Assembly (NCBI GenBank): GCA_900314865.1
Contig: OMWW01000004.1
Location: 1,749-65,748 of the forward strand
Length of the DNA: 64,000 nt
Origin: an uncultured Erysipelotrichaceae bacterium
Lineage (GTDB): Bacteria; Bacillota_I; Bacilli_A; RFN20; CAG-826
Reading direction: 5' to 3'
Below the pieces are notes generated by a model that saw only the letters and a list, made by a program, of their open reading frames with translations, was not told the DNA's origin and did not search any database. Shown here in pieces: positions 2 to 59,581 of the stretch. Position 1 is the first letter of the stretch, and each line of letters opens with the position of its first letter. Both the position numbers and the translations under genes were made by a program.

Positions 2-1021
2 AATCCTAATGGTGGTAGTGTTGATTCGACTTCCATAACTGTAATCTACGATTCTTTCTACTCTCTTCCAATTCCAACGAGACTTAATTACATATTCTTG
101 GGCTGGTATGATGGAGACAAAAAAATCTCAAACAACGCGACTTGGAAATATACAGAAAACAAATCATTTACTGCAAAATGGACGAACATTACCAATACAT
201 ATGTATTTGACGCTGGTGATGGAAATTGTGAAGTTGACTCAATGGTTATTGGTTGGGAAGATGAATATGAATTACCAACCCCAACAAGTGAATTCTATTT
301 GTTTGATGGGTGTTATTTAAATGACGCTAAAATTCCTCAATCTGGAACATGGACATATTCAAATTCTGGTGGTCATTTAGTAGCGAAATGGGATTCACCT
401 TTAACTATTGAAAATAATATTGTAAAAAGTTGTGACAAATCTATTTCTAAAGTTATTATCCCTGATGGCGTCACTTCAATAGGAAACAACGCGTTTTTTG
501 AATGTACTTCCCTCACTTCAATAACCATCCCCGACAGTGTCACTTCCATCGGTGGTGCAGCTTTCTTCAAATGCACATCCCTCGCTTCAATCATTATCCC
601 TGATAGCGTTACCTCAATTGGAGCTGCCACCTTTAAATATTGCACATCCCTAACCTCAATCATTATCCCTGATAGTGTTACCTCAATTGGAGCTGCCACC
701 TTTGATGGTTGTCAATTCCTAACCTCAATCGTTATACCTAATCGTGTCACCTCAATTGGAGATTATGCCTTTAATGATTGCTCATCCCTCGCTTCAATCA
801 TTATGTCTAACAGTGTCACCTCAATTGGCAAAGGAACTTTCTTTAACTGTACATCGCTAACCTCAATAGTCATTCCTGACAATGTTACCTCAATTGGCGA
901 AAAAACTTTCCAAAATTGTTTATCACTTACAATTTACTGTAGAGCTCAATCAAAACCATCAGGCTGGAATTCAAATTGGAATTCTAGCAATAGACCTGTT
1001 GTATGGGGGTATGAAGGATGA
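2..1021 (+). CDS. Surface protein, 5'-partial: N-terminal Listeria-Bacteroides (Flg_new, YxFxGWY) repeat followed by about 8 BspA-type leucine-rich repeats of 23 aa (IPDSVTSIGxxAFxxCTSLTSI)
   Basis: The frame is open from the window edge; the track ORF at 98 begins at an internal TTG. NYIFLGWYDGDKK motif; repeated 69-nt LRR units; ends at TGA 1019-1021. Confidence 0.6.
   Translation, partial: NPNGGSVDSTSITVIYDSFYSLPIPTRLNYIFLGWYDGDKKISNNATWKYTENKSFTAKWTNITNTYVFDAGDGNCEVDSMVIGWEDEYELPTPTSEFYLFDGCYLNDAKIPQSGTWTYSNSGGHLVAKWDSPLTIENNIVKSCDKSISKVIIPDGVTSIGNNAFFECTSLTSITIPDSVTSIGGAAFFKCTSLASIIIPDSVTSIGAATFKYCTSLTSIIIPDSVTSIGAATFDGCQFLTSIVIPNRVTSIGDYAFNDCSSLASIIMSNSVTSIGKGTFFNCTSLTSIVIPDNVTSIGEKTFQNCLSLTIYCRAQSKPSGWNSNWNSSNRPVVWGYEG
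589..704 (+). repeat. Near-identical tandem 69-bp repeat units inside the LRR gene (47-nt cores at 589-635 and 658-704 differ by 1 nt)
   Basis: Direct sequence comparison of the repeat cores. Confidence 0.7.
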
Positions 1022-2102: not shown

Positions 2103-3962
2103 ATGATGTATATGGCGTACGGATTACTTTATGATTACTTAATGGGCCAAAGCATTGATGCTTACAATTATTTTGGTGCCCACTTTGAAAAGAGAGATAA
2201 CGTTTGTGGTGTAGTCTTTAGACTTTACGCCCCAATGGCCAGTGACGTCTCTGTTATCGGAGATTTCAATGACTGGAATGTTTATTCTCACAAGATGAAC
2301 AAAGTTGATGATTGCGGTGTTTGGGAAATCTTTGTCCCAGGACTTTGCAATTATCAAGCCTACAAATTCCACTTTAAGAATGCGAAAGGAGCGTATGTAG
2401 ACAAAATTGACCCATATGCGTTCTTTAGTGAAGTTGCTCCAGGTACATGTTCACGTTTATTTGACATCAGTGGTTTCATCTGGCATGACGATGAATTCTT
2501 AAAACAAAGAACTCGTAATTTTGACAAACCAATGTCAATTTATGAAATGCATGTTGGTAGTTGGCTTAAGAGTCACGAAGGAAGATTCTCTTCTTTTGAA
2601 GAACTCGCAGATGAACTCATCCCTTATATCCAAGGTATGGGTTATACACATGTAGAATTTATGCCTATCATGATGCACCCATTCTTAGGAAGCTGGGGAT
2701 ATCAAGCGACAGGATTCTATTCTGTTGACCCACGTTATGGAAATCCATATCAACTCATGTCTTTAATTGATAGACTTCATCAAGCTGGTATTGGAGTAAT
2801 TATTGATTTTGCTCCAGTGCACTTCGCTAACGATGAATGGGCTCTTAAAGATTATGATGGCACTCAATTATTTGAATATAGCAATCAATATCGAGTGTCT
2901 CCATGGGGAAGCTTACAATTCGATTTAGGAAAAGATCCAGTTAGATCCTTCTTAATGAGTGCGATTAATTTCTATGTCTCTATGTTCCACGCGGACGGTA
3001 TTAGAATTGACGCGGTCAGTAACATCATCTTCTATAACGGTGATAAACGTAATGGTACGAATGATGGAGCAATTGAATTCATCAAACGTTTAAATGGTAA
3101 GATGCATATCGCTCATGACTCGGTAATGATGATTGCCGAAGATAGTAGTGATTATCCAGGAGTTACAAAAGATACATCTATCGGTTTAGGTTTCGATTAT
3201 AAATGGGACTTAGGCTGGATGAATGATACCTTAAAATATTACTCATTAGATCCAATCTATAAGAAATATGACCATAACAAACTCACTTTCTCAATGGCCT
3301 ATTTCTATAGCGATAATTTCCTTTTACCATTCTCTCATGATGAAGTAGTCCACGGTAAAGGCACCCTCTTAAATAAGATGTGGGGTGATTATTATCAAAA
3401 GTTCGCCTTATTACGTAATTTAATTACCTATCAATTTGCCCATCCAGGCAAAAAACTCAACTTCATGGGTAATGAATTTGGTTCCTTTGATGAATGGAAT
3501 GAAAGCAAATCTCTTCCATGGCATCTCAAACAATTCCCTGCTCATGACTCAATTAGTAGACTATATCACGATTTAAACTTAATCTACCGCGCTCATAAAG
3601 CGATGTATTTTGAGGAACATAACCCAGAAAGATTCAGATGGTTAATCGTTGATAATAATTATGATTCTGTGTTTGCGTTCACTAGACGTTGTGAAGGTGA
3701 AACCTTAATCTTTGTCTTCAATATGACCCCTAACTTCTATAGTGGATTTGGTATCCCAGTAGAAAAAGAGGGAGAATACGAAGAAATCTTTAATAGCGAT
3801 AAAGACATCTATGGTGGTGATAACCAATATAATGGTGCGACCTTAGGTAGTTTTGCTGGATACATCACTATTAAACTTGCCTCTTTTGGTGCGATGATTT
3901 TCAAATACAAAGAAAAGGAAGTTGAAGCTCCTAAAAAGGCAAAAAGAACTACTAAAAAGTAG
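2103..3962 (+). CDS. glgB: 1,4-alpha-glucan (glycogen) branching enzyme, GH13
   Basis: Full-length similarity pattern to GlgB (N-terminal CBM48-like region, GH13 catalytic core motifs DFAPVHF, GIRIDAV, EDSSDYPG). No Shine-Dalgarno; a TATAAT lies immediately upstream, so the true start may be the ATG at 2112 (leaderless). Confidence 0.9.
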   Translation: MMYMAYGLLYDYLMGQSIDAYNYFGAHFEKRDNVCGVVFRLYAPMASDVSVIGDFNDWNVYSHKMNKVDDCGVWEIFVPGLCNYQAYKFHFKNAKGAYVDKIDPYAFFSEVAPGTCSRLFDISGFIWHDDEFLKQRTRNFDKPMSIYEMHVGSWLKSHEGRFSSFEELADELIPYIQGMGYTHVEFMPIMMHPFLGSWGYQATGFYSVDPRYGNPYQLMSLIDRLHQAGIGVIIDFAPVHFANDEWALKDYDGTQLFEYSNQYRVSPWGSLQFDLGKDPVRSFLMSAINFYVSMFHADGIRIDAVSNIIFYNGDKRNGTNDGAIEFIKRLNGKMHIAHDSVMMIAEDSSDYPGVTKDTSIGLGFDYKWDLGWMNDTLKYYSLDPIYKKYDHNKLTFSMAYFYSDNFLLPFSHDEVVHGKGTLLNKMWGDYYQKFALLRNLITYQFAHPGKKLNFMGNEFGSFDEWNESKSLPWHLKQFPAHDSISRLYHDLNLIYRAHKAMYFEEHNPERFRWLIVDNNYDSVFAFTRRCEGETLIFVFNMTPNFYSGFGIPVEKEGEYEEIFNSDKDIYGGDNQYNGATLGSFAGYITIKLASFGAMIFKYKEKEVEAPKKAKRTTKK

Positions 3963-3979
3963 AAAGGAATACAAACATT

Positions 3980-6382
3980 ATGTTTGCATCGAAGAACGAT
4001 TTTAAAAAAGAATTCCAGTCCCGTTTACTTCAAAGATACGGTGTTGAAGTTAAAGATAGTTGTCCTAATGAACAATACACCATTTTAGGTGAAATGATTA
4101 GAGACTACGCTAATGTCGACTGGTCCAAAACCCATTTAGAATCCACACAAGGAAAAAGAACTTTGATTTATTTTTCCATGGAATTCTTAATTGGACGTTT
4201 ACTTAATAACAATATTCAAAACCTCGGTTTATACAAAATTATCAAAGAAGGTTTAGATGAACTTGGTATTGATATCAATACCTTAGAAAACGAAGAAAGT
4301 GACGCCGGTCTTGGTAATGGTGGTCTAGGTCGACTTGCCGCCTGTTTCCTTGATTCCATTGCTTCTTTAGGATACATCGGACACGGTAACTGTATCCGTT
4401 ATGAATATGGTTTCTTCCGTCAAAAGATTGCTGATGGAAAACAAAAAGAATTACCAGATCAATGGCTCACTAACGGTAACGTTTGGGAAGTCAGAAGAGC
4501 AAAATATGCGGTCGAAGTTAAATTCTACGGACATCCTGAAAGCTATCAAAAGAAAGATGGAACATTTGGTATTAAGACAGCGGACGCTTTAATTGTTAGA
4601 GCAGTCCCATATGATATGCCAGTTATTGGTTATCAAAACCATGTCACTAATACTTTAAGACTTTGGAACGCTGAACCAAGTAGTAAGCCACTTCCAAAAT
4701 CAACTTCTTTCCAAGAATACTGTATTGCTCTAGAAGAATTATGCCACGGTTTATACCCAGATGATTCTACTGAAGCTGGTCGTATTTTAAGACTTAGACA
4801 ACAATATTTCTTAGTCTCTGCCGGTTTACAAAGTGCTTTAAATTCTTATTATAGACACCGTGGAACATTAATAGATATCCATAAGGATTATGTCTTCCAA
4901 CTCAATGACACTCACCCAATCTTGGCGATTCCTGAAATGATGAGAATCATGCTTGATGAATATGATATGGAATGGGATGAAGCTTGGGCAGAAGTGACTC
5001 AATGTATGGCTTACACTAACCACACCGTCATGGTGGAGGCTTTAGAAAGATGGCCAGTACTTTATGTCCAACACTTAATTCCACGTTGCTATATGATCAT
5101 TGAAGAAATCAACCGTAGATTTAATATCGAAATGATCAATAACGGTGTTAATGAATGGGAAAGACATGCGATGAACATCATTAAAGATGGACAAATCCAC
5201 ATGACTAATTTAGCGATTTACACTGCTTTCTCAGTTAATGGTGTTGCGGCTTTACATACCGAAATCTTAAAGCACACAACCTTCAAAGAATTCTACCATT
5301 ATATGCCAGAGAAATTTAACAATAAGACCAATGGTGTTACCCACCGTAGATGGCTTGTTAATTCTAACCCTGCTCTAGCAGATCTTATCTCTTCTAAAAT
5401 TGGTAAAGACTGGATTTTAGATATGAGCAAGATTAAAGCCTTTGATAAATTCGCTACCGATAAGAAAGTCATTAAAGAATTTAACGAGATTAAGTTAGAA
5501 AACAAAAAGAAACTCGCTAAATACGTCAAAGAACATAATGGTATTGATGTTGATGTGAATTCTATCTTTGACGTTCAAATTAAGCGTCTACACGCTTATA
5601 AACGTCAATTGATGAATGTCTTCCACATCATCTATTTATATCAAAGAATGAAGTCTGATCCTTCATTTAGAATCTATCCACATACCTACTTCTTTGGTGC
5701 GAAAGCCGCTCCAAGTTATACCTACGCGAAGAAGATTATTGAATTAATCTTAGCGGTTGGTGAAGTAGTGAATAACGATCCAGAGATTTCACCATACTTA
5801 AAGGTTGTCTTTATTGAAAACTATGGCGTTTCTTTAGCGGAATTAATCATTCCTGCTGCTGATATCAGTGAACAAATTTCTACTGCTGGTAAAGAAGCTA
5901 GTGGTACTTCCAATATGAAGTTCATGATGAATGGTGCTGTTACCTTAGGAACACTTGATGGTGCGAACATTGAAATAGCTGAACTCGCAGGTGAAGAAAA
6001 CGAAGTTATCTTTGGTCTTAAGAACGAAGAAGTTGAAGAACTCGTTAATAGTGGCTCTTATTCTCCATGGGATATGTATAATGGTGATCAACGTATCAAA
6101 GCCATTATGGATAGCTTATTTGATGGTGAATGGACCAATTACCGTAGAGATAAATTCAGAATGATCTTTGATGAAATCTTTAATGGCAACGACCAATACT
6201 TTATCTTGAAAGATCTTCCAAGTTATATCGAAGCTCAAGAAAAAGCATCTGCACTATATCAAGATCGTGAACACTGGGCGACAATGTGTTTACACAACAT
6301 CGCTAATAGTGGATTCTTCTCCAGTGATAGAACGATCAATGAATACGTCAGAGACATTTGGAAATTGGAGAAAATTGACTAA
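3980..6382 (+). CDS. glgP: Glycogen/maltodextrin phosphorylase (GT35), pyridoxal-phosphate site EASGTSNMKFMMNGA
   Basis: 800 aa; conserved PLP-lysine motif; RBS AGAAAGGAA upstream. Confidence 0.9.
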   Translation: MFASKNDFKKEFQSRLLQRYGVEVKDSCPNEQYTILGEMIRDYANVDWSKTHLESTQGKRTLIYFSMEFLIGRLLNNNIQNLGLYKIIKEGLDELGIDINTLENEESDAGLGNGGLGRLAACFLDSIASLGYIGHGNCIRYEYGFFRQKIADGKQKELPDQWLTNGNVWEVRRAKYAVEVKFYGHPESYQKKDGTFGIKTADALIVRAVPYDMPVIGYQNHVTNTLRLWNAEPSSKPLPKSTSFQEYCIALEELCHGLYPDDSTEAGRILRLRQQYFLVSAGLQSALNSYYRHRGTLIDIHKDYVFQLNDTHPILAIPEMMRIMLDEYDMEWDEAWAEVTQCMAYTNHTVMVEALERWPVLYVQHLIPRCYMIIEEINRRFNIEMINNGVNEWERHAMNIIKDGQIHMTNLAIYTAFSVNGVAALHTEILKHTTFKEFYHYMPEKFNNKTNGVTHRRWLVNSNPALADLISSKIGKDWILDMSKIKAFDKFATDKKVIKEFNEIKLENKKKLAKYVKEHNGIDVDVNSIFDVQIKRLHAYKRQLMNVFHIIYLYQRMKSDPSFRIYPHTYFFGAKAAPSYTYAKKIIELILAVGEVVNNDPEISPYLKVVFIENYGVSLAELIIPAADISEQISTAGKEASGTSNMKFMMNGAVTLGTLDGANIEIAELAGEENEVIFGLKNEEVEELVNSGSYSPWDMYNGDQRIKAIMDSLFDGEWTNYRRDKFRMIFDEIFNGNDQYFILKDLPSYIEAQEKASALYQDREHWATMCLHNIANSGFFSSDRTINEYVRDIWKLEKID

Positions 6383-16448: not shown

Positions 16449-16588
16449 AAATTAGATTCTAATATACCCAAGACAGTAACGGACGTGGAGTCTTAATAAT
16501 GTTACCGAGGTGAAGAAAATATCATTTGATTCTCACTGTATATTGGAGCCTCAAAAAAAACAAAACAAATTGAAAAGGAGGTCAAAAC
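16449..16588 (+). promoter_or_regulatory. Possible rplJ (L10) autoregulatory leader
   Basis: 140-nt untranslated spacer with local pairing (TAACGG...CCGTTA-like, GACGTGGAGTC); position matches L10-leader elements in Firmicutes; not verified. Confidence 0.2.
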
Positions 16589-40633: not shown

Positions 40634-42544
40634 ATGGAAATTAGAATTAAGAATTTAACAAAAATCTTCCCTGGCGATGCGAAGAAAAATATTCGTGACA
40701 CAATCGCTGTCAAAGATCTCGATTTCGTGGTTGATGATGGAACTTTAGTTGGTTTACTTGGTCCATCTGGCTGTGGTAAATCCACAACTCTTTACATGAT
40801 TTCAGGTCTTCAAACACCAACATCTGGTGAAGTTTGGTTTGGTGATCAAGAAGTTACTAACCTCTCCCCAGAAAAAAGAGGTATTGGCTTAGTCTTCCAA
40901 AACTACGCTCTTTACCCACACATGACCATCTATAAGAACATCGAGTTCCCTCTTACCAACTTAAAGGTTGAGATTCCTCTTGTTACTTTCTTCAATTTCA
41001 CACTTCATTACGAATATGAAATGAAAGAAAACGATGTTGTTGATGGAATCGAAAAGAGTGTTGTTTCTTTGTTAAAGAAAATTGGTCTTAGAAAGAAACA
41101 ATTTGAAACCAAGTTCCAAGATATGGGTGGAAAACTTGATATCTTAGTCCAGCTCAAGAACGTTTCCCCAGCAGTGAGAGATATGTTCAAAGGCAATATG
41201 GAACGTATTATTGAAGCACACCTTGTTGATGAAGAAGAAGTGCAAACTCAAGACGCTTTATATGATTCCACTGTTAGAGCCACTGTTACCAAGACTGGTG
41301 AAAATGAAGTTTTGGGTCTTACAATTAAAGGCCGCCTTCCTAAAGAATTCACAACCGAATTTTTAGATGAAACAATTACTAAATTTAAACATCTTTCTCA
41401 ACATTTTGGTAAACCAGGTGAAGTGGTTATTTCTAAATCACAACGTGGTTATGAATTAATGGGACGTGTCTCAAATGTTAATACTAAAAATCAAGAAGAA
41501 TTACTCAATTCCGTTTCTGCCGAATTAAAACTTGAAAATGCAGCTATTATTGTTAACTCTGCTAGAAATGATGAAATCAATAACGCAATTCGTTCTTTCT
41601 TAAAAGCAAAGAAAGTCGAATTTACCGATTATAAGCTTTATTTCGATAAAGTTCACACAAAGGTATATTTCAAATTAGTTAGAGTTAAAAGAGAAGACGC
41701 TGAAGGCGTTGTCGCTGAACTCGGTGAACTCCTCGGCTTTGAAGATGTCGAAGTTGATATCGCACAAGCTATCTCCCATCGTAAACTCACAAAAGAAGAG
41801 AGAAGAGATATCGTTTATGAAACCGCAAAACTCGTTCAAGTTGATGAATATTTAGAGAGAAAACCAAATCAACTCTCTGGTGGTCAACAACAACGTGTTG
41901 CTATTGCTCGTGCTCTTGTTAAACATCCACGTGTCTTATTATTAGATGAACCATTATCTAACTTAGACGCACGTTTACGTTTACAAACACGTGAAGAAAT
42001 CAGAAGAATTCAACAAGAAACAAAGATTACTTCTGTCTTCGTTACCCACGACCAAGAAGAAGCGATGTCTATTTCTGATCAAATCGTCGTTATGAAGTTA
42101 GGCGAAATGCAACAAATGGGACGTCCACAAGACGTTTACAATTCACCAGCTAACTTATTCGTCGCTCAATTCTTAGGAACCCCACCAATTAACGTCTTTA
42201 AAGGCAAAGTTGATGGTAAGAACGTCTATGTCGGTGAAGATCTTGTCCACGTTTTAGGCGAAGACCTCGGCAAGAGAGATGTTTGGGTTGCCATTAGACC
42301 AGAAGGATTCATTATCGCTAATGCCAAAGACAAGAATGTCTTACACGCCAACTGCGAAATGATTCAAGTTATGGGTCGTGACATTTCTGTTGTTGCCAAT
42401 AACGAATATTGTACAAAACCAACTTTCAAAGCAATCATTTCTGCTGATGATGAAGTCAAAGCAGGCCCTGTTGCTTTAAAAGTTAAACCTCATAAAATTT
42501 TCATCTTTGATGGTGAAACCGAAGAACGTATCTATACAAAGTAA
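40634..42544 (+). CDS. ABC transporter ATP-binding protein, MalK/UgpC type with C-terminal TOBE-like domain and a roughly 270-aa insertion in the helical subdomain
   Basis: Walker A GPSGCGKST; Q-loop VFQNYALYPHMT. The signature LSGGQQQRVAIARAL appears only at about aa 414, and Walker B LLLDEPLSNLD at about aa 436. Confidence 0.8.
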   Translation: MEIRIKNLTKIFPGDAKKNIRDTIAVKDLDFVVDDGTLVGLLGPSGCGKSTTLYMISGLQTPTSGEVWFGDQEVTNLSPEKRGIGLVFQNYALYPHMTIYKNIEFPLTNLKVEIPLVTFFNFTLHYEYEMKENDVVDGIEKSVVSLLKKIGLRKKQFETKFQDMGGKLDILVQLKNVSPAVRDMFKGNMERIIEAHLVDEEEVQTQDALYDSTVRATVTKTGENEVLGLTIKGRLPKEFTTEFLDETITKFKHLSQHFGKPGEVVISKSQRGYELMGRVSNVNTKNQEELLNSVSAELKLENAAIIVNSARNDEINNAIRSFLKAKKVEFTDYKLYFDKVHTKVYFKLVRVKREDAEGVVAELGELLGFEDVEVDIAQAISHRKLTKEERRDIVYETAKLVQVDEYLERKPNQLSGGQQQRVAIARALVKHPRVLLLDEPLSNLDARLRLQTREEIRRIQQETKITSVFVTHDQEEAMSISDQIVVMKLGEMQQMGRPQDVYNSPANLFVAQFLGTPPINVFKGKVDGKNVYVGEDLVHVLGEDLGKRDVWVAIRPEGFIIANAKDKNVLHANCEMIQVMGRDISVVANNEYCTKPTFKAIISADDEVKAGPVALKVKPHKIFIFDGETEERIYTK

Positions 42545-43690: not shown

Positions 43691-44659
43691 ATGGAAAACG
43701 TTAGAAAATATATCAATTTTAAAGACGTAAAAGTTAATAACAATATCGTCCTATCTATTGAAGAAGCCAGCAAATCCGCTGAAGCGATTAAAAAGACAGA
43801 GCGTGTATTCAAAATTATTACAACAATTTTGACTTATGCATTTATTCTTGCTTTGGCTATAACTGTCTTATTCCCATTCTATTGGATGATTATCACTTCT
43901 TTAAAACAAAGAGCTGAAATTATTCAACAAAAACAAACTTTCTTCCCATCAATTGTTATGTGGTCAAACTACATGTATGTTTTCGAGGTCTTTGACTTCA
44001 CAACATATATGAAGAACACAATTATCGTTGCTATTTTCTCGACTGCTGGTACGTTGCTTACAACTATTTTTGCAGCTTTCGCATTTGCAAGGCTCAAATT
44101 TAGAGGTAATAGCACTGTCTTTGCAATCTTCTTGATGACGATGATGATTCCTGGTGAAATGATGGTTATTTCCAATTACATCACCGTTAACTCTTTTGGG
44201 TGGATTAGCAATCAAACCGCAATCAAGGCGTATCTTGCAATGATTGTTCCGTTCATGGTAAGTGTCTTCCACATCTACTTGCTGCGTCAGAATTTCAAAC
44301 AAATTCCTAACGAATTATATTTAGCAGCTAAAGTTGACGGAAAGAGTGACTGGGACTTCTTATGGAAAGTCATGGTTCCTCTTGCAGCACCTACCTTAAT
44401 TTCCATCACAATTCTTAAATTTATGGGAACATGGAACTCCTATGTTTGGCCAAACTTGGTTACCAAAGAAGAAGAGTACAAACTCATTTCTAACGGATTA
44501 CGTGGTAGTGGATTCACTAACCCTGACGATCCAACAATGATTGAGTATGGTTATCAAATGGCAGCCTCTGTTTGTGTTACCGTCCCATTATTCCTCTTAT
44601 TCGTCTTCTTCCGTAAATACATTATGAAGGGTGTCGGAAGAGCCGGTATTAAAGGTTAA
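43691..44659 (+). CDS. ABC transporter permease (MalG/UgpE-like)
   Basis: 6 TM; conserved EAA loop (LAAKVDGKSDWDFLWKVMVPLAAP); RBS AGGAGG. Confidence 0.75.
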   Translation: MENVRKYINFKDVKVNNNIVLSIEEASKSAEAIKKTERVFKIITTILTYAFILALAITVLFPFYWMIITSLKQRAEIIQQKQTFFPSIVMWSNYMYVFEVFDFTTYMKNTIIVAIFSTAGTLLTTIFAAFAFARLKFRGNSTVFAIFLMTMMIPGEMMVISNYITVNSFGWISNQTAIKAYLAMIVPFMVSVFHIYLLRQNFKQIPNELYLAAKVDGKSDWDFLWKVMVPLAAPTLISITILKFMGTWNSYVWPNLVTKEEEYKLISNGLRGSGFTNPDDPTMIEYGYQMAASVCVTVPLFLLFVFFRKYIMKGVGRAGIKG

Positions 44660-47794: not shown

Positions 47795-49534
47795 ATGAAA
47801 AACAAACTTTGTAAAGCTTTGGTTGCCTCTGCGTTAATTGCCTTTGGAACTGGTCTAGCCAGTTGTGGAGGTAATAGCGGCGGAAACAACTCACCTTCCG
47901 ATCCAACTCCAGCAGTTTTGGAACCTGCTTTATCTACTGATAGCATTGTTTTAACTCAAGGAACAAACGATACTGTTTCCTTAAACAACGTTGATAAAGA
48001 ATTAGAATTCAGTTGGGTTTCAAGCGACCCAGATATTGCTAGAGTGACATTCCGTAAGAATATGGCGATGATTTCTGGCGATAATCCTGGTGAAGCTGTC
48101 GTTACAGCGACCGTCACTTATGCGGATGGTTCATCTGTTTCAAAGAGTCTTCAAGTTGTTGTTAATGAGCTGGTCCATGTTGAAGTTCCTTTAACAGATC
48201 CTCATCCAGATGGATTTGTAGAATATGTTAATGATCTTCATTTAGCTTTAGATTACAAGGAAAAAGACTTCTTTGTTGATGGCGTTGGTGAATTTGATCT
48301 TTGGATGGCGATTGATGGGGATACCGCCCACTTCACACCAAAAGTCACAAAAACATCTAGAGAGACTGTTAAGGCTAGATTTTATGGCATTGATACCCCT
48401 GAATCTACTGGTAACATTCAACCTTATGGAAAACAAGCCAGTAATTTCACTAAGGATAAGTTAATGAACGCAAAAGAACACGGAACAATTGTTCTTGCTG
48501 GTGTTAGTAGTGAATATGGAAAACCAACAACTGACGCTAATGGTCGTTATTTATGTTGTGTTTGGATTCACGAAACAAAGAAAAATGCATCATTTGATGA
48601 ATTGGTTAACCTTAATCTTTGGATTATTCAAGAAGGTTATTCTAATCCAGGAAGCACAGATAAAATGCCAGACTATTCTCAAACATTTGTTAATGCTTTC
48701 AACCAAGCGGTTCAATGCGAATTAAAAATGCATTCTGGAAAAGAAGATCCATTATTCCCAAAAGAAGCATATAGAACTTCGATTCCTGACATCATGAAAC
48801 AAGTTAACTCTTATTTAAATGGCGAAACTGATTTAGACCCATTTGCGGTTGGAATTAACTACATTTTTAAAGGCACTGTTTCTGGTTTCTCTAATAATAC
48901 ATTATTCTTACAAGCGTACGACTTTATTGAAGATAGATATTATGGAATTAACTGTTTCTGTGGCATGTCTGCAATCAATGAAATGTATAAAATTCCTGGT
49001 ACTTTATTAGAAGTAACTGGTACAGCCCAAAATAGTGAAAACTTCGGTTTCCAAATAACTGGCTTGGCCGGCAATTTCCCTGCTCTTCCAGAATTTGCTG
49101 ATGATGACGATGTTAAGATTCTATTAAAAGCTGAAGAAAACACAAACGATGATACAAAACTTGTCAAATTCCCAATGACCGCTAAAGAATTAAATGATGC
49201 AGTTACTAAGAAGAGCACAAGATTTGAGTACTTAAATAACTGCGTTTGTTTAACCGATAACCTTGTTGTCAATTATTTCAAACCAAATGCTGATGAAAAC
49301 AAATTCACAGTTGGATTTGAAGGTGTTGAATTCGATGTCTATTTAGGTGGTTCTTATGCTGGTGATCCAGATAATCCAAATACAGTTTGGAACAAAGAGT
49401 CTCAATGGAAAGGCAAGACGATGTCTATTAAAGTGGGATTGTTGACTTATCACACTCTTCAAAGCACTGGTGAAATTCGTTTCCAATTAGTTATTCCACC
49501 AGAATTAAAGAATAATCTTGTCTGGGTCAAATAA
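47795..49534 (+). CDS. Membrane-anchored lipoprotein nuclease: Big_2 domain, staphylococcal-nuclease (SNase/thermonuclease)-like domain and a C-terminal domain of unknown function
   Basis: Lipobox GLASCGG; Big_2 (VSSDPDIARVTF...GEAVVTATVT); SNase active-site region ARFYGIDTPESTGN at nt about 48378-48420. Confidence 0.6.
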   Translation: MKNKLCKALVASALIAFGTGLASCGGNSGGNNSPSDPTPAVLEPALSTDSIVLTQGTNDTVSLNNVDKELEFSWVSSDPDIARVTFRKNMAMISGDNPGEAVVTATVTYADGSSVSKSLQVVVNELVHVEVPLTDPHPDGFVEYVNDLHLALDYKEKDFFVDGVGEFDLWMAIDGDTAHFTPKVTKTSRETVKARFYGIDTPESTGNIQPYGKQASNFTKDKLMNAKEHGTIVLAGVSSEYGKPTTDANGRYLCCVWIHETKKNASFDELVNLNLWIIQEGYSNPGSTDKMPDYSQTFVNAFNQAVQCELKMHSGKEDPLFPKEAYRTSIPDIMKQVNSYLNGETDLDPFAVGINYIFKGTVSGFSNNTLFLQAYDFIEDRYYGINCFCGMSAINEMYKIPGTLLEVTGTAQNSENFGFQITGLAGNFPALPEFADDDDVKILLKAEENTNDDTKLVKFPMTAKELNDAVTKKSTRFEYLNNCVCLTDNLVVNYFKPNADENKFTVGFEGVEFDVYLGGSYAGDPDNPNTVWNKESQWKGKTMSIKVGLLTYHTLQSTGEIRFQLVIPPELKNNLVWVK

Positions 49535-49543
49535 GGAGGTTAT

Positions 49544-50020
49544 ATGTATTGCTATCATTGTGGTTACAAAATTAATGAAGAAGCAATTGAAGCAAAGTCT
49601 TCAACAAGACAAAAATACGCTGAAGATGCCTCTATAGATGCTGATGTTCAATATGTTTGCCCACGTTGTGGACATTTGATTCATCATGGCTATAAAAAAG
49701 AAGATTTAAAATCTTTATCTGCAGCATGCCATGCAGAATTGCAAAGAGGAAGAAATGATTTTGCTAGAGGAATGTCTTCTGCATCCATTGCGATCATTTT
49801 AGGAATTACAGGGTTCATTTTCCTCTTGCTTTCAAGAAAACCCGATAATTTATATCGTGTTACCTCATCCTGTCCTGAGTTCTGGATTTTCATCGTACTC
49901 AGTGTTATCGCTGTTATCCTTTTAGTCACCGGAGTATTCCTTGTTTTTAAGGGTGTTCTTAGAAAATCGAAATACACCGTACTATTAAAAGATATTAACA
50001 CCGAGACATTCGTTCAATAA
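49544..50020 (+). CDS. Zinc-ribbon (CxxC...CxxC) membrane protein with 2 TM; unknown function
   Basis: YCYHCGYKI...CPRCGHLIH then two hydrophobic helices; RBS AAGGAGG. Confidence 0.4.
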   Translation: MYCYHCGYKINEEAIEAKSSTRQKYAEDASIDADVQYVCPRCGHLIHHGYKKEDLKSLSAACHAELQRGRNDFARGMSSASIAIILGITGFIFLLLSRKPDNLYRVTSSCPEFWIFIVLSVIAVILLVTGVFLVFKGVLRKSKYTVLLKDINTETFVQ

Positions 50021-50075
50021 TGTCCCATAGAATGTCTCATAATCCAAATTCATTAATCTAAAAAAGGAGGAAAGT

Positions 50076-53000
50076 ATGAAAAAAGGATTAATTTTCACAG
50101 CATTAATGTGCACTCTAACTATGGGGTTAGTTGCATGTGGCAATAATGCTAGTGATACACCTCAAGTCCCAGTAGCTACATTATCCAGTATCAAACTTAA
50201 TATTGATAATGTCGAAAAGACTTTTAAGGTTGGTGACACTTTTAGTTCTGCTGGATTAGTCGTTACTGCTAAATATAGCGATGGTAGCGAAAAAGCCGTT
50301 GAAGCAGGAAAATATAGTGTTTCCTCACCTGACATGAGTACCTCTGGTACTAAAGTGGTTACTGTCACATATGAAGGCAAAACCGCTCAATACAACATTA
50401 CTGTTGAACCTGCAGAAATTGTTGTTTCTATTACCAATAAGGAAGACTTCGAACCTGAATGGAGAGTTGGTGACAGTTCAAGAACACTCAAATTATCCGT
50501 TACTGGTGTCGTTGTTGACGCCGCTATTAGAAGTGGCGATTTAGTTATTTCTGCCTCTAATCCTGAAGTCGTCGGAATTGATGGAAGAGAAATTTCTGCT
50601 AAAGCTGCTGGAACCACAACCATTACCGCCACCTACAAGGGTGATGCAAGTGATAGTGTTGAAGTTACAGTCTTGCCAAAGAAATTGTTAAGTAAAGTTC
50701 TTAATCCTGTCGAAGAAGAAGAATATTTATTAGCAAGAGCAGATGGCAATAATCCTAATGCTTTGATGTATGTCAAAAACGACATGTCAAACACATTTTA
50801 TCTTGGATATGAAAGTGACAGAACGAAAGCACCTGTTTTAACTGTTAAAATTGATGAATCTGCTGAAGATTATAAATATGAATTAGTCTTTGATGCAGGT
50901 ACTGATAATGAACATAATATTGGCGCACTTTGTACTGCTAAAGGAAAATATGCTACAGGTTTTGTTGGCAACAAAATTAGTGGATTAGATGTTCCACAAA
51001 CATTCTGGAAAGTTGACGAATTAGGTCAATTATGGTGCAAAGTCCAAGACGATGGTGCGGATGTTGAATTATTACTTGGTGGAGCAGGAATTTATAACAC
51101 CACAAGCGCTGACTTACCAAGTAAAATTAAAAATCCAGCATTCATCTACACTGAAAACGCTGAAGAAAAACCTGCAACTGAAATTAACGTTTCTCCTGAA
51201 TCGTTAGAATTAGTTCCAGGACAAAACAAGAGATTAACCGTCTCATTATTACCTGCTGATACAACCGATACAGTTTCTTATATTCCAAGCAACACAGATG
51301 TTATTGAAGTTTCTGACGATGGCATTGTTACTGCCTTAACTGCTGGTGAAGCAGATATCCTTGTTAAGGCAAACGATGATGTTTCCAAAACAGTCCACGT
51401 TGTTGTTTCTGGTGAAGCAATCAAATTTGGTACTAGAGAAGCGCCATTAACTGTTGATGAAGTGTTAGCAGAAATCGTTAAATGTGCCGATGAAGGAGAT
51501 TCTTCTTCATACCCATTCTACGTTTCTGGTAAAGTTTCTTCTTCCACTTATAACACTGAGAAGAAAAACGCAACCATTACATTAAAAGGAACATCTGGCA
51601 ATTTAGAAGCCTATAGAGCAATTGGTGACGAGGGTATTGATGTATCTACCATCAAAGCCACTGATGAAATTTTAGTTGTTGGTTATTCTGATATTTATAA
51701 CAAAAAATTACAACTCGCTCCATTAGCTAATGCCGGAACAAAAGAATATGGTGATCCAACCGTTTTAAGCGTTGTTCCTGGTGAAGGTGGAGATGAACCA
51801 GAAGATTCTGAATATGGTTCTTTCGAGTCACCATTAACTCCAGAACAAGCCGTTGCTTTCTTAGACAAATATTTCCCAGATGGAAATACATCCTCAAAAG
51901 ATTTATATGTTGAAGGCGAAGTTTCTGAAGTTTCTTCACACGAAAAACCAAATATTTGGTTAAAGAGTTCTGATGGCGCAACCGCTAAATATTTTGAATC
52001 CTATATGTCAACCATGGCTGATGGTGTAGAAAAACCAGAAGTCGGTGATACAGTTATCATTAAAGGTAAAGCAAAAATCTATACTTCCGGTTCTAATAAA
52101 ACATATGAATTAACCAATGTTGGTCAAACCGATTATCCACAAGTCTTAACAGTCACTAAAGGCGAAGGTGGTGGCGGTGGAGAAGAAATCCCAGAACCAA
52201 CCTTAGTCAAAGGCACAATTGCCGAATTCTTGGCAGATACAGCTGGAAACGGCAAACAATTATATGAAGTTAAAGGCACAGTCTCTAAATGGGCAAACGA
52301 CAAGAGTGGTAACCCAAATCCAGACGGTACTAAATATGGTAACTTCTATATGACCGATGATTCCGGTGCTGAATTATATGTTTACGGCGCAACTTCCAAT
52401 GCTGAAAAATTAGCTTGGAATTCTACTTCTGGTGTTTACTCTTTCTCAAACCCACAAGACTTCTTAACTGGTGAATTAACCAAAGATATTAGAATTGGTT
52501 CTGTCGTTACAATGAAAGTCACTCGTTGTGACTACAAAACAACCTTAGAAGGTCAAGGTATCGTTACTGCTGTTGAAAACGAGGTTGTAGAATTAACCGG
52601 AATTAAATTCGACGTTGAAGGTGATTCAATCGATTTAATCGAAGGTAGAACAAAAGCTATTAAACTTCTTCCTCTTCCAGAATTTGCGGAATTACCAGAA
52701 GAAGATCCAACTTGGGAATCTAGCAATCCTGAAGTTGCGACCATTGCTGAAGGTAACAACGTTGGTGCTCTCATTACCGCTGTTAAAGAAGGTACAGCAA
52801 AGATTACTGCTAAATATAGCGATAAAATCAAAGCTGAAATTACAGTTAACGTTGTGAAAGATTCTGGTGAAGAACCTGCTTATGTCGATGCAACCATGAC
52901 TAAAGGCACTAACGCTTATGATGATGTCAAAGTTAATGGTAAGCCAGCTATCAAAGTCGGCAAAAGTTCGGCTGGTGGAGATATGACCATTACCGTTGGT

Positions 53001-53270
53001 GCTGGTGCAACCGAATTAGTGTTCTATGCCGCCGCGTGGAATGGTGTTACAGGCTTAGCACTCAATATTACAGGTGCAACAGTCAATCCAACATCAGTTG
53101 ATTTAACCGCCGATTCTGCAATTGCTGGTACTGCAACAGATTATGCTATCTCAGATGAATCACAATACAAATTTGTTATTGCTTTATCTAATATCACAGA
53201 AGAAACAGTTATTAAACTTGAAGGCTCTATTGCAAAGAGATTTGTCGTTTGGGGCGCTCAATACAAATAA
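50076..53270 (+). CDS. Large surface lipoprotein (1064 aa) with multiple Big_2/Ig-like domains
   Basis: Lipobox GLVACGN; recurrent Big_2 segments (for example VTALTAGEADILVKAND, KEGTAKITAKYSDK); Gly-rich linkers. Confidence 0.55.
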   Translation: MKKGLIFTALMCTLTMGLVACGNNASDTPQVPVATLSSIKLNIDNVEKTFKVGDTFSSAGLVVTAKYSDGSEKAVEAGKYSVSSPDMSTSGTKVVTVTYEGKTAQYNITVEPAEIVVSITNKEDFEPEWRVGDSSRTLKLSVTGVVVDAAIRSGDLVISASNPEVVGIDGREISAKAAGTTTITATYKGDASDSVEVTVLPKKLLSKVLNPVEEEEYLLARADGNNPNALMYVKNDMSNTFYLGYESDRTKAPVLTVKIDESAEDYKYELVFDAGTDNEHNIGALCTAKGKYATGFVGNKISGLDVPQTFWKVDELGQLWCKVQDDGADVELLLGGAGIYNTTSADLPSKIKNPAFIYTENAEEKPATEINVSPESLELVPGQNKRLTVSLLPADTTDTVSYIPSNTDVIEVSDDGIVTALTAGEADILVKANDDVSKTVHVVVSGEAIKFGTREAPLTVDEVLAEIVKCADEGDSSSYPFYVSGKVSSSTYNTEKKNATITLKGTSGNLEAYRAIGDEGIDVSTIKATDEILVVGYSDIYNKKLQLAPLANAGTKEYGDPTVLSVVPGEGGDEPEDSEYGSFESPLTPEQAVAFLDKYFPDGNTSSKDLYVEGEVSEVSSHEKPNIWLKSSDGATAKYFESYMSTMADGVEKPEVGDTVIIKGKAKIYTSGSNKTYELTNVGQTDYPQVLTVTKGEGGGGGEEIPEPTLVKGTIAEFLADTAGNGKQLYEVKGTVSKWANDKSGNPNPDGTKYGNFYMTDDSGAELYVYGATSNAEKLAWNSTSGVYSFSNPQDFLTGELTKDIRIGSVVTMKVTRCDYKTTLEGQGIVTAVENEVVELTGIKFDVEGDSIDLIEGRTKAIKLLPLPEFAELPEEDPTWESSNPEVATIAEGNNVGALITAVKEGTAKITAKYSDKIKAEITVNVVKDSGEEPAYVDATMTKGTNAYDDVKVNGKPAIKVGKSSAGGDMTITVGAGATELVFYAAAWNGVTGLALNITGATVNPTSVDLTADSAIAGTATDYAISDESQYKFVIALSNITEETVIKLEGSIAKRFVVWGAQYK

Positions 53271-58541: not shown

Positions 58542-58617
58542 GGTCCCTTAGCTCAGCTGGTAGAGCAACTGACTCTTAATCAGTGGGTCAAAGGTTCGAA
58601 TCCTTTAGGGATCACCA
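58542..58617 (+). tRNA. tRNA-Lys (anticodon CTT)
   Basis: Cloverleaf: acceptor GGTCCCT/AGGGATC, D-arm GCTC...GAGC, anticodon stem ACTGA/TCAGT with loop CTCTTAA, T-arm AAAGG-TTCGAAT-CCTTT, genomic CCA. Confidence 0.85.
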
Positions 58618-58630
58618 TCTTGAAAAAAAT

Positions 58631-58656
58631 GAGTCGAATAATTCGACTCTTTTTTA
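58631..58656 (+). terminator. Rho-independent terminator after the tRNA
   Basis: GAGTCGAAT-a-ATTCGACTC followed by TTTTTTAT. Confidence 0.65.
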
Positions 58657-58684
58657 TATTTTTATATTCACGTATTATAAATAT

Positions 58685-59581
58685 ATGAAAATAGGAAAGA
58701 CCGCTCTTAATTTATTAAATTACTTTATTAGAAAAGATATCAAAAAACGTCGTAAGCATTATCCTCCTCATTCTTTTAAAGAATGGATAAACATTCCTTA
58801 TATTGATGATGGAAATCCTTATCACACTTATGATGTCTATTTAGCTAATGAAGAAATTAGAAAAAGAGTGTGCATTATGTATATACATGGTGGTGCTTAT
58901 ATCTTAGGTGAACATCAAGATAATTATCCTTTTGCCTATTATTTATTAAATAAGGGATACGATTTTGTTTCGACTGATTATATTCCTAATGATGGAAATA
59001 GAAGCTCTTTAGAACTTGTTAAAGACGTCGTTAATAATGTTCTCCATGTTTTATCTCGTCTAAAGGAATATGACTTACAAGACGATAAGATAGTATTTGC
59101 TGGTGATTCAGCAGGTGGACATTTCGCTCTCCTTTTAGCGGAACTCTTCAAAAACAAAGAAGCCGCAAAAGAATTAGGGTTTGAACTACCTGAATTAGAT
59201 ATTAAAGCAGTTATATTATGTTGCCCTGTATATAATTTCAAAGATATGGGCAAAGGCATCATGTCTAAAGCAGGATTAAAAAGAATGTTAGGTCCTTCTT
59301 ATAATGATCCAGAGTTATTAATAAAATTAACACCTAGAACATATATTGATTCATTTAATTTGCCTATCTTTGTTTCGACGTGTACACATGATTTTATTAG
59401 ACCAGAGTCACTTCTTATTAATGAAGATTTAAAAGAGAGAAAGAATTATACATTTTTTGATCTCCAATGCGAAGACAAGAAAGTTGATCACGTACATAAC
59501 GTCGTTAAAACAAATTTAAAAGAATCTATCATAGTGAATGATGCAATTGTTGATTTTATTATTAAATATACGAGTAAGTAG
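58685..59581 (+). CDS. Alpha/beta hydrolase fold-3 esterase/lipase (HGG oxyanion motif, GDSAGG nucleophile)
   Basis: MYIHGGAYILGE and FAGDSAGGHFAL. The track ORF begins inside the tRNA; the realistic start is ATG 58685 directly after a TATAAA-type -10. Confidence 0.7.
   Translation: MKIGKTALNLLNYFIRKDIKKRRKHYPPHSFKEWINIPYIDDGNPYHTYDVYLANEEIRKRVCIMYIHGGAYILGEHQDNYPFAYYLLNKGYDFVSTDYIPNDGNRSSLELVKDVVNNVLHVLSRLKEYDLQDDKIVFAGDSAGGHFALLLAELFKNKEAAKELGFELPELDIKAVILCCPVYNFKDMGKGIMSKAGLKRMLGPSYNDPELLIKLTPRTYIDSFNLPIFVSTCTHDFIRPESLLINEDLKERKNYTFFDLQCEDKKVDHVHNVVKTNLKESIIVNDAIVDFIIKYTSK

Follow-up and report, generated by a model that had tools for sequence, protein, structure and literature searches.

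What is a segment of 273 amino acids (aa) doing in the middle of the nucleotide-binding domain (NBD) of a sugar-type importer? The question is raised by a gene in a 64,000-nucleotide stretch of contig OMWW01000004.1 (the window, that is, the whole stretch analysed), which comes from an uncultured Erysipelotrichaceae bacterium. The gene encodes a 636-aa ATP-binding cassette (ABC) ATPase of the MalK/MsmX/UgpC type. The extra segment is a true insertion, is predicted to form three folded modules and possibly serves to regulate the transporter.

The borders of the insertion are given by alignment. In a phmmer search of all PDB chains, residues 17-109 align with residues 10-102 of 2yyz, a 358-aa sugar ATPase of Thermotoga (T. 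maritima), and residues 383-633 with its residues 103-358. None of the core residues of 2yyz is missing from the window protein, which has exactly 273 residues in addition. In BLASTP against E. coli MalK, the reference sequence of which was confirmed to be identical to 1q12_A, L107 corresponds to MalK L100 and V394 to MalK V114. In MalK terms, the insert replaces residues 101-113, a loop with the beginning of a helix, which lie between helices one and two of the helical subdomain. The distance from K49 in Walker A to S415 in the signature amounts to 366 residues, in comparison with 93 in E. coli MalK (K42 to S135), and a contiguous NBD with about 90 residues between the two motifs is not found in the 636-aa ATPase. 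On the basis of these alignments, residues 110-382 are a true insertion; they do not represent a helical subdomain of ordinary length whose sequence has diverged.

A preliminary description of this DNA had proposed a split of the MalK-type NBD by roughly 270 residues at positions 40960-41800, and this is borne out, the borders found (40961..41779) differing by only a few codons. The motif positions agree as well, with Walker A and the Q-loop in the first 100 residues and the signature and Walker B beyond residue 410, as does the canonical spacing of about 90 residues. A normal-length helical subdomain, the outcome that would have spoken against the proposal, was not obtained in the alignments to MalK and 2yyz. 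The location in the subdomain that contacts the permease coupling helices agrees with both the alignment and the literature (PMC6906923).

The two halves of the NBD are otherwise complete. All catalytic motifs of MalK-type ATPases are intact (Table 1), and the Pfam match to ABC_tran is broken into two stretches. Judged by these motifs, the protein is a catalytically complete MalK/MsmX-type ATPase, a subunit of a CUT1-type binding-protein-dependent importer, and its ATP binding and hydrolysis should be canonical. The C-terminal regulatory domain is present, the alignment of residues 383-633 reaching residue 358 of 2yyz and residue 366 of MalK; the Pfam match to OB_MalK is weak (E = 0.11). All scores against the NCBIfam equivalog models lie under the cut-offs (in bits, with the cut-off in brackets: UgpC 348 (432), MalK 266 (568), PotA 293 (482)), so that no specific substrate family can be assigned.

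The fold of the insertion was predicted with AlphaFold2. Modelled alone from an alignment of 21 inserts, it has a mean predicted local distance difference test (pLDDT) score of 90.6, with 85.7-90.6 over the five models. Within the full-length run (model m1a58a9411f72), it reaches a pLDDT of 85-92, and the C-terminal regulatory domain, all-beta, one of 80-90. The insert is predicted with high confidence to consist of three tandem ferredoxin-like alpha+beta modules, A to C. Module A matches the ferredoxin-like order beta-alpha-beta-beta-alpha-beta exactly, module B begins with an additional strand, and the first strand is absent from module C. No sequence repeat is detectable among the three (hhalign probabilities 0.4-2.3%). 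When the model was compared with the PDB by Foldseek, the top matches were designed tandem ferredoxin folds; the best natural ones were the tandem-ACT regulatory proteins 1u8s and 2nyi, SerB2 and aspartokinase ACT domains. In the model, the fold class is clear, and no specific family relationship is evident.

The segment had been described as Lys/Glu-rich and devoid of recognisable motifs. The latter part stands, as nothing significant was found in Pfam or NCBIfam for the window insert, nor in Pfam for the 21 aligned inserts, and a sequence-profile search of the PDB gave no match below E = 0.1. The enrichment in charged residues is only mild, as K and E together make up 21.4% of the insert, against 14.8% of the core. 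The featureless charged linker implied by that wording has to be given up, as the insert is predicted to form three folded modules and is under purifying selection (see below). The structure prediction, proposed in the preliminary description as a check for an autonomous domain, favours one, since the insert is confidently predicted to fold on its own.

The conservation of the insert was followed by a scan for relatives with one genome per species. It returned 127 stretches encoding a relative of the ATPase; 80 loci were kept, with 78 full-length orthologues. The insert, whose retention across related genomes had also been named as a check, is kept throughout, its length being 271-284 aa in the window protein as well as in each of the 78 orthologues. 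Compared with the window protein, the orthologues are on average 94% identical in the N-terminal part of the core, 92% in its C-terminal part, 61% in the regulatory domain and 43% in the insert. The ratio of nonsynonymous to synonymous substitution rates (dN/dS) of the insert is 0.01-0.08 among closely related pairs, which indicates strong purifying selection. In module A, the conserved residues D134, G138, I139, L146 and G151 are located in or after the beta1-alpha1 loop. In module B, D211, R215, L235, F239, D245 and I248 are fully conserved and G272 is conserved at 96%. Module C has a conserved D332-x-K334-x-Y336-x-D338-K339 on one strand, which implies that its alternating polar residues share one face in the predicted structure. 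The polar residues of the insert that are fully conserved across the orthologues are D211, R215, D245, D332 and K334.

The distribution of the insert is narrow. A HMMER search of 1.84 billion representative proteins with the insert profile gave 14 matches, all of them to the same ATPase, its fragments or chimeras; neither a stand-alone insert nor a copy in another protein was found among these representatives. The insert occurs in uncultured Bacilli of the rumen and gut; those with names are Ca. Enteromonas and Ca. Enterosoma (GTDB order RFN20, families CAG-826 and CAG-288). These hosts are not classical Mollicutes, and the ATPase genes are read through under the standard genetic code. These searches show that the insert is confined to one orthologous ATPase family of gut and rumen Bacilli, with its named members in RFN20. 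No description of the insert was found in the published literature searched. Several of the insert-matching database proteins (P0142, P0143 and P0133) are chimeras or frameshifted fragments, for example the N-terminus of the ATPase joined to a LexA-like C-terminus, or a signal-peptide protein joined to the C-terminal half of the ATPase. They are probably artefacts of metagenome assembly or gene calling.

A second, unrelated insert is found at the same site. In one genome (locus L063), the 636-aa type coexists with a paralogous MalK-type ATPase of 482 aa, encoded on the opposite strand to it (L063:1802-3250, minus strand). The core halves of this paralogue share 62% and 53% of their residues with the window protein, and its insert of about 113 aa is placed at exactly the same junction, which in both types follows FPLxNLKV and precedes R-x-L-T-K-D/E-E. 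A search with the paralogue brought up the rest of its family in this lineage (proteins P0150-P0269), whose members are 476-597 aa long and which has a separate CUT1 operon of its own. The inserts of this family measure 100-235 aa and contain 26% K+E; that of P0230 is tandemly duplicated. A further locus of this Lys/Glu-rich family is listed at L084:8001-9755. The composition suggests that the paralogue insert may be mainly helical, and a profile comparison reveals no similarity between it and the 273-aa insert (hhalign probability 0.2%). The description "Lys/Glu-rich, motif-less" fits the paralogue insert better than that of the window. The presence of unrelated inserts at one junction in two ATPase families marks the loop as an insertion hot-spot in this lineage. 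That the paralogue carries a different insert there also argues that the site is both permissive and functionally exploitable.

Table 1. Features of the insertion-bearing ATPase and of the genes around it (window positions; NBD, nucleotide-binding domain).
Feature	Residues	Position	Strand	Basis
ABC ATPase gene, MalK/MsmX/UgpC-type, insertion-bearing	636 aa	40634..42544	+	intact open reading frame; PDB and NCBIfam matches
N-terminal NBD half: Walker A, Q-loop, first helical-subdomain helix	1-109	40634..40960	+	aligns with 2yyz 10-102 and MalK 4-100
Insertion of 273 aa, replacing loop MalK 101-113	110-382	40961..41779	+	phmmer against PDB; BLASTP against MalK
Predicted insert module A, beta-alpha-beta-beta-alpha-beta (ferredoxin-like)	119-206	40988..41251	+	AlphaFold2
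Predicted insert module B, beta-beta-alpha-beta-beta-alpha-beta	210-311	41261..41566	+	AlphaFold2
Predicted insert module C, alpha-beta-beta-alpha-beta	313-378	41570..41767	+	AlphaFold2
C-terminal NBD half: LSGGQ, Walker B, D-loop, H-loop	383-515	41780..42178	+	aligns with 2yyz from 103 and MalK from 114
C-terminal MalK-type regulatory domain	516-636	42179..42541	+	aligned to C-terminal parts of 2yyz and MalK
Walker A, GPSGCGKS	43-50	40760..40783	+	
Q-loop	Q89	40898..40900	+	
Signature, LSGGQ	414-418	41873..41887	+	
Walker B, VLLLDE, catalytic Glu included	434-439	41933..41950	+	
D-loop, SNLD	442-445			
H-loop	H472	42047..42049	+	
696-aa protein: signal peptide, large extracytoplasmic part, C-terminal membrane segments, basic tail	696 aa	38526..40616	+	no Pfam family
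Two permeases with EAA loops	370 and 322 aa	42563..44659	+	BPD_transp_1
Two paralogous solute-binding proteins, lipoprotein-like signals	511 and 501 aa	44704..47775	+	
SNase-domain protein, ends same gene string	579 aa	47795..49534	+	SNase, E = 1.5e-8

The ATPase gene is part of a conserved gene string. The order RDD protein, 696-aa protein, ATPase, two permeases, two solute-binding proteins and SNase protein is kept in nearly all loci. As expected for a MalK-type ATPase, the operon also encodes two BPD_transp_1 permeases with EAA loops and solute-binding proteins. The EAA regions and the MalG-like C-terminal tail of the permeases are 90-99% conserved. The second permease (43691..44659) ends, over its last 20 or so codons, in ...FRKYIMKGVGRAGIKG, which is 96-99% conserved and resembles the tail of MalG; in MalG, this C-terminal tail inserts into the MalK dimer interface. 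The first solute-binding protein matches SBP_bac_8 and SBP_bac_1, and the two are mutually 26% identical (E = 4e-31). Except for the insert, the transporter is an ordinary CUT1 machine.

The gene for the 696-aa protein is located immediately 5' of the ATPase gene in 79 of the 80 related loci. Its product shows only about 28% identity between loci, the sole hint of a family being a weak match to BspA-type leucine-rich repeats. Two consecutive genes for RDD-family membrane proteins, with predicted open reading frames that overlap by 35 bases (36160..37359 and 37325..38410), are both kept 5' of the operon in the majority of related loci. For a promoter, only a consensus match at 38443..38470 can be named, and neither promoter-like nor terminator-like sites occur above background frequency. 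A riboswitch or leader that might point to the substrate was sought 5' of the operon, and none was found.

The synteny of the SNase gene is kept in related loci. Likely surface enzymes for nucleic acids or phosphoesters flank the transporter on both sides (32805..36096 and 47795..53270). Those encoded upstream are a 5'-nucleotidase-like metallophosphoesterase with Big_3 and a tyrosine-phosphatase-family protein with Big_3 and fn3; the others are the SNase-domain protein and one of 1064 aa that combines Big_2, Big_3 and OB-fold domains. In Mycoplasma, operons that combine a staphylococcal-type nuclease with a sugar-type ABC importer have been proposed to take up nucleic-acid precursors (PMC3585158, PMC9740415). 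By analogy with these nuclease-ABC operons, the flanking enzymes suggest a nucleic-acid scavenging locus. The transporter is probably important for these reduced-genome gut organisms, as nuclease-linked loci of this kind are thought to feed Mycoplasma with nucleic-acid precursors.

A possible function can be derived from the position of the insert. The helical subdomain varies more than any other part of ABC NBDs, rotates in the course of the transport cycle and, jointly with the RecA-like subdomain, forms the cleft into which the permease coupling helices fit (PMC6906923). Transport requires rotation of the helical subdomain against the RecA-like one, with the coupling helices docked in the cleft between them. 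An insert of about 30 kDa, made of three modules and anchored with both ends in the helical subdomain, would be well placed to restrain or license this rotation. It might tune uptake by responding to a partner protein or, in an ACT-like manner, to a bound metabolite, perhaps one derived from the imported substrate. The effect would be akin to the trans-inhibition mediated by the C-terminal domains of MetN and ModC, which dimerise under the NBDs, but would be exerted from within the helical subdomain. It is as a tentative proposal, the most likely of those considered but possible rather than probable, that the modelled insert is regarded as a cytoplasmic regulatory module that modulates helical-subdomain rotation or coupling.

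Support for this regulatory role comes from the clean insertion with intact motifs, the confident fold, the fixed length, the invariant polar residues and the purifying selection. The tandem-ACT Foldseek matches, the role of the helical subdomain in coupling, the importer context and the second insert in a paralogue point in the same direction. Several observations weigh against it. The proposed mechanism is drawn from the position of the insert and its fold class, and the ferredoxin-like fold is very common and not diagnostic of regulation. The Foldseek matches have TM-scores of just 0.2-0.35 (E-values 1e-7 to 1e-4), and no Pfam match to ACT or related domains was found in the window insert or in any of the 21 aligned inserts. 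The full-length AlphaFold2 run has a predicted template modelling (pTM) score of just 0.37 and a core pLDDT below 50, and it does not predict how the insert is placed relative to the core. The low core pLDDT likely results from the alignment of 56 sequences, nearly invariant in the core, and not from disorder. In addition, the ATPase already possesses a MalK-type C-terminal regulatory domain, and the insert evolves fast, as expected of a loosely constrained peripheral domain.

The insert might instead bind no metabolite and act as an adaptor or docking platform, which recruits or organises proteins at the cytoplasmic face of the transporter. The 696-aa membrane protein, the RDD proteins, the cytoplasmic N-terminal extensions of the permeases and substrate-processing enzymes would be the candidates. 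The constant position of the 696-aa gene and the upstream RDD genes would fit this, as would the alternation of D332, K334, Y336 and D338 along a beta-strand, which is expected of an exposed interaction face. The "arm" of ABC-F proteins and the insertion domains of UvrA, located between Q-loop and signature, are likewise partner-binding elements. However, these genes are neighbours in all loci, so their co-occurrence does not discriminate, and the N-terminal extensions borne by both permeases are poorly conserved (23-45% identity) and were dropped as conserved partners of the insert. A docking role is considered rather doubtful. It is unlikely, too, that the insert is a structural accretion without a specific regulatory role, that is, a stable domain acquired by a permissive loop and now retained only because the stability or assembly of the ATPase has become bound up with its folding. 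Large inserts without an explanation are said to be frequent among the proteins of Mollicute-like bacteria with reduced genomes, the same loop tolerates unrelated inserts of the paralogues, one of them tandemly duplicated, and the insert evolves far faster than the core. Against this stand the low dN/dS, a length that varies by no more than 13 residues despite deep divergence and the invariant charged residues, a constraint that exceeds what folding alone usually imposes.

The origin of the insert allows other explanations. That it is an intein, a mobile element, a gene fusion, a frameshift or an assembly error has next to no probability, and nothing but the unusual protein length speaks for it. 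The frame is intact, and a protein identical to that of the window (P0013) is present on 12 independent contigs; the three of them shown are ENA metagenome assemblies, one from the rumen project PRJEB21624. Full-length orthologues with the same junctions occur in at least 78 genome assemblies. An intein is rejected by the absence of a Hint or endonuclease domain in Pfam and by the junction (L110-K111 ... S381-H382 / R383), which is without Cys/Ser/Thr nucleophiles and without His-Asn. The purifying selection on the protein and a GC content of the insert (0.348) close to that of the remaining gene (0.390) likewise speak against these explanations, and recent foreign acquisition was discarded as well. 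The Mycoplasma ATPases MG187 and MPN134 have a size of about 585 aa, and the insert could be a diverged homologue of theirs, ancient in Mollicute-related Bacilli and so partly known. This would concern origin, is compatible with any functional role, and is judged improbable. The locus is of the same kind, an SNase gene adjoining a sugar-type importer with a lipoprotein solute-binding protein, and for the large inserts that the preliminary description attributes to some Mollicute ABC ATPases, two weak hints are found in the literature. S392 of Mpn134 was modelled onto the 371-aa MalK dimer (PMC3293634), so that extra residues must precede S392, and MAG_5050 was described with "two ATP-binding domains" (PMC3585158), which could reflect a split NBD. 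On the other hand, the 14 matches of the insert profile among the 1.84 billion representatives all belong to its own family and include no Mycoplasma protein, and no Pfam or NCBIfam model covers the insert. Moreover, the two unrelated inserts at one site in RFN20 show that inserts can coincide in position without common ancestry.

If regulation from within the helical subdomain is retained as the preferred reading, a broader version of it can be formulated. The helical-subdomain loop of RFN20 would be a domain-insertion platform that has received at least two unrelated modules, and the three-module insert would be a sensor of a metabolite or partner, which gates import via the rotation. This extended form is speculative and not likely to hold in full. 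If true, such sensor-gated import would differ as a mode of regulation from every C-terminal regulatory domain known; to our knowledge, the extra regulatory domains known on ABC importer ATPases are all C-terminal. The insert adds a confidently predicted orphan domain family without relatives in 1.84 billion proteins, and one loop of the helical subdomain has been used twice, independently, within a single lineage. A large folded domain inside the subdomain that transmits ATP-driven motion would represent a natural experiment on load tolerance and possibly a new regulatory principle.

Some further features of the window were recorded. Glycogen metabolism is represented at the window start by genes for a GlgB-like branching enzyme and a glycogen phosphorylase (2103..6382), which show storage or use of alpha-glucans by the organism. 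A ribosomal protein L10 leader at 16449..16539 (Rfam RF00557, 46.5 bits, barely over the gathering score) is located amid large open reading frames. A tRNA gene at 58542..58614 (Rfam, 72 bits) overlaps the predicted GTG start of a 332-aa alpha/beta-hydrolase reading frame (58583..59581), the true start codon of which probably lies further downstream.

In comparison with known systems, the locus combines common and unusual traits. It shares the nuclease, the sugar-type importer and the lipoprotein solute-binding protein with the SNase-ABC operons of Mycoplasma (M. agalactiae MAG_5030-5070; M. pneumoniae MPN133-136; the M. hyopneumoniae mhp379 locus). The gene order differs, the nuclease gene being 3' of the transporter genes in the window, and the host belongs to the RFN20-type Bacilli with a standard genetic code instead. 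With the MalK/MsmX/UgpC ATPases (MalK, 1q12; B. subtilis MsmX, 6yir; T. maritima, 2yyz), the protein has in common the motifs, the RecA-like core, the helical subdomain and the C-terminal domain, as well as an operon that supplies binding proteins and two permeases with EAA loops. Those ATPases are without its 273 extra residues, predicted to form three modules in the helical subdomain. The ferredoxin- or ACT-like C-terminal domains of MetN (its C2 domain) and ModC would be functional analogues, as domains of the same small alpha+beta class on importer ATPases. However, they are C-terminal appendages, whereas the window ATPase is predicted to carry three modules within the helical subdomain. 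Large insertions at the topologically same region of the ABC fold, with catalytic motifs intact, occur in Rad50/SMC, UvrA and ABC-F proteins. There they consist of coiled coils, zinc modules and helical hairpins in DNA- or ribosome-binding proteins, while that of the window is a predicted alpha+beta domain in a membrane importer.

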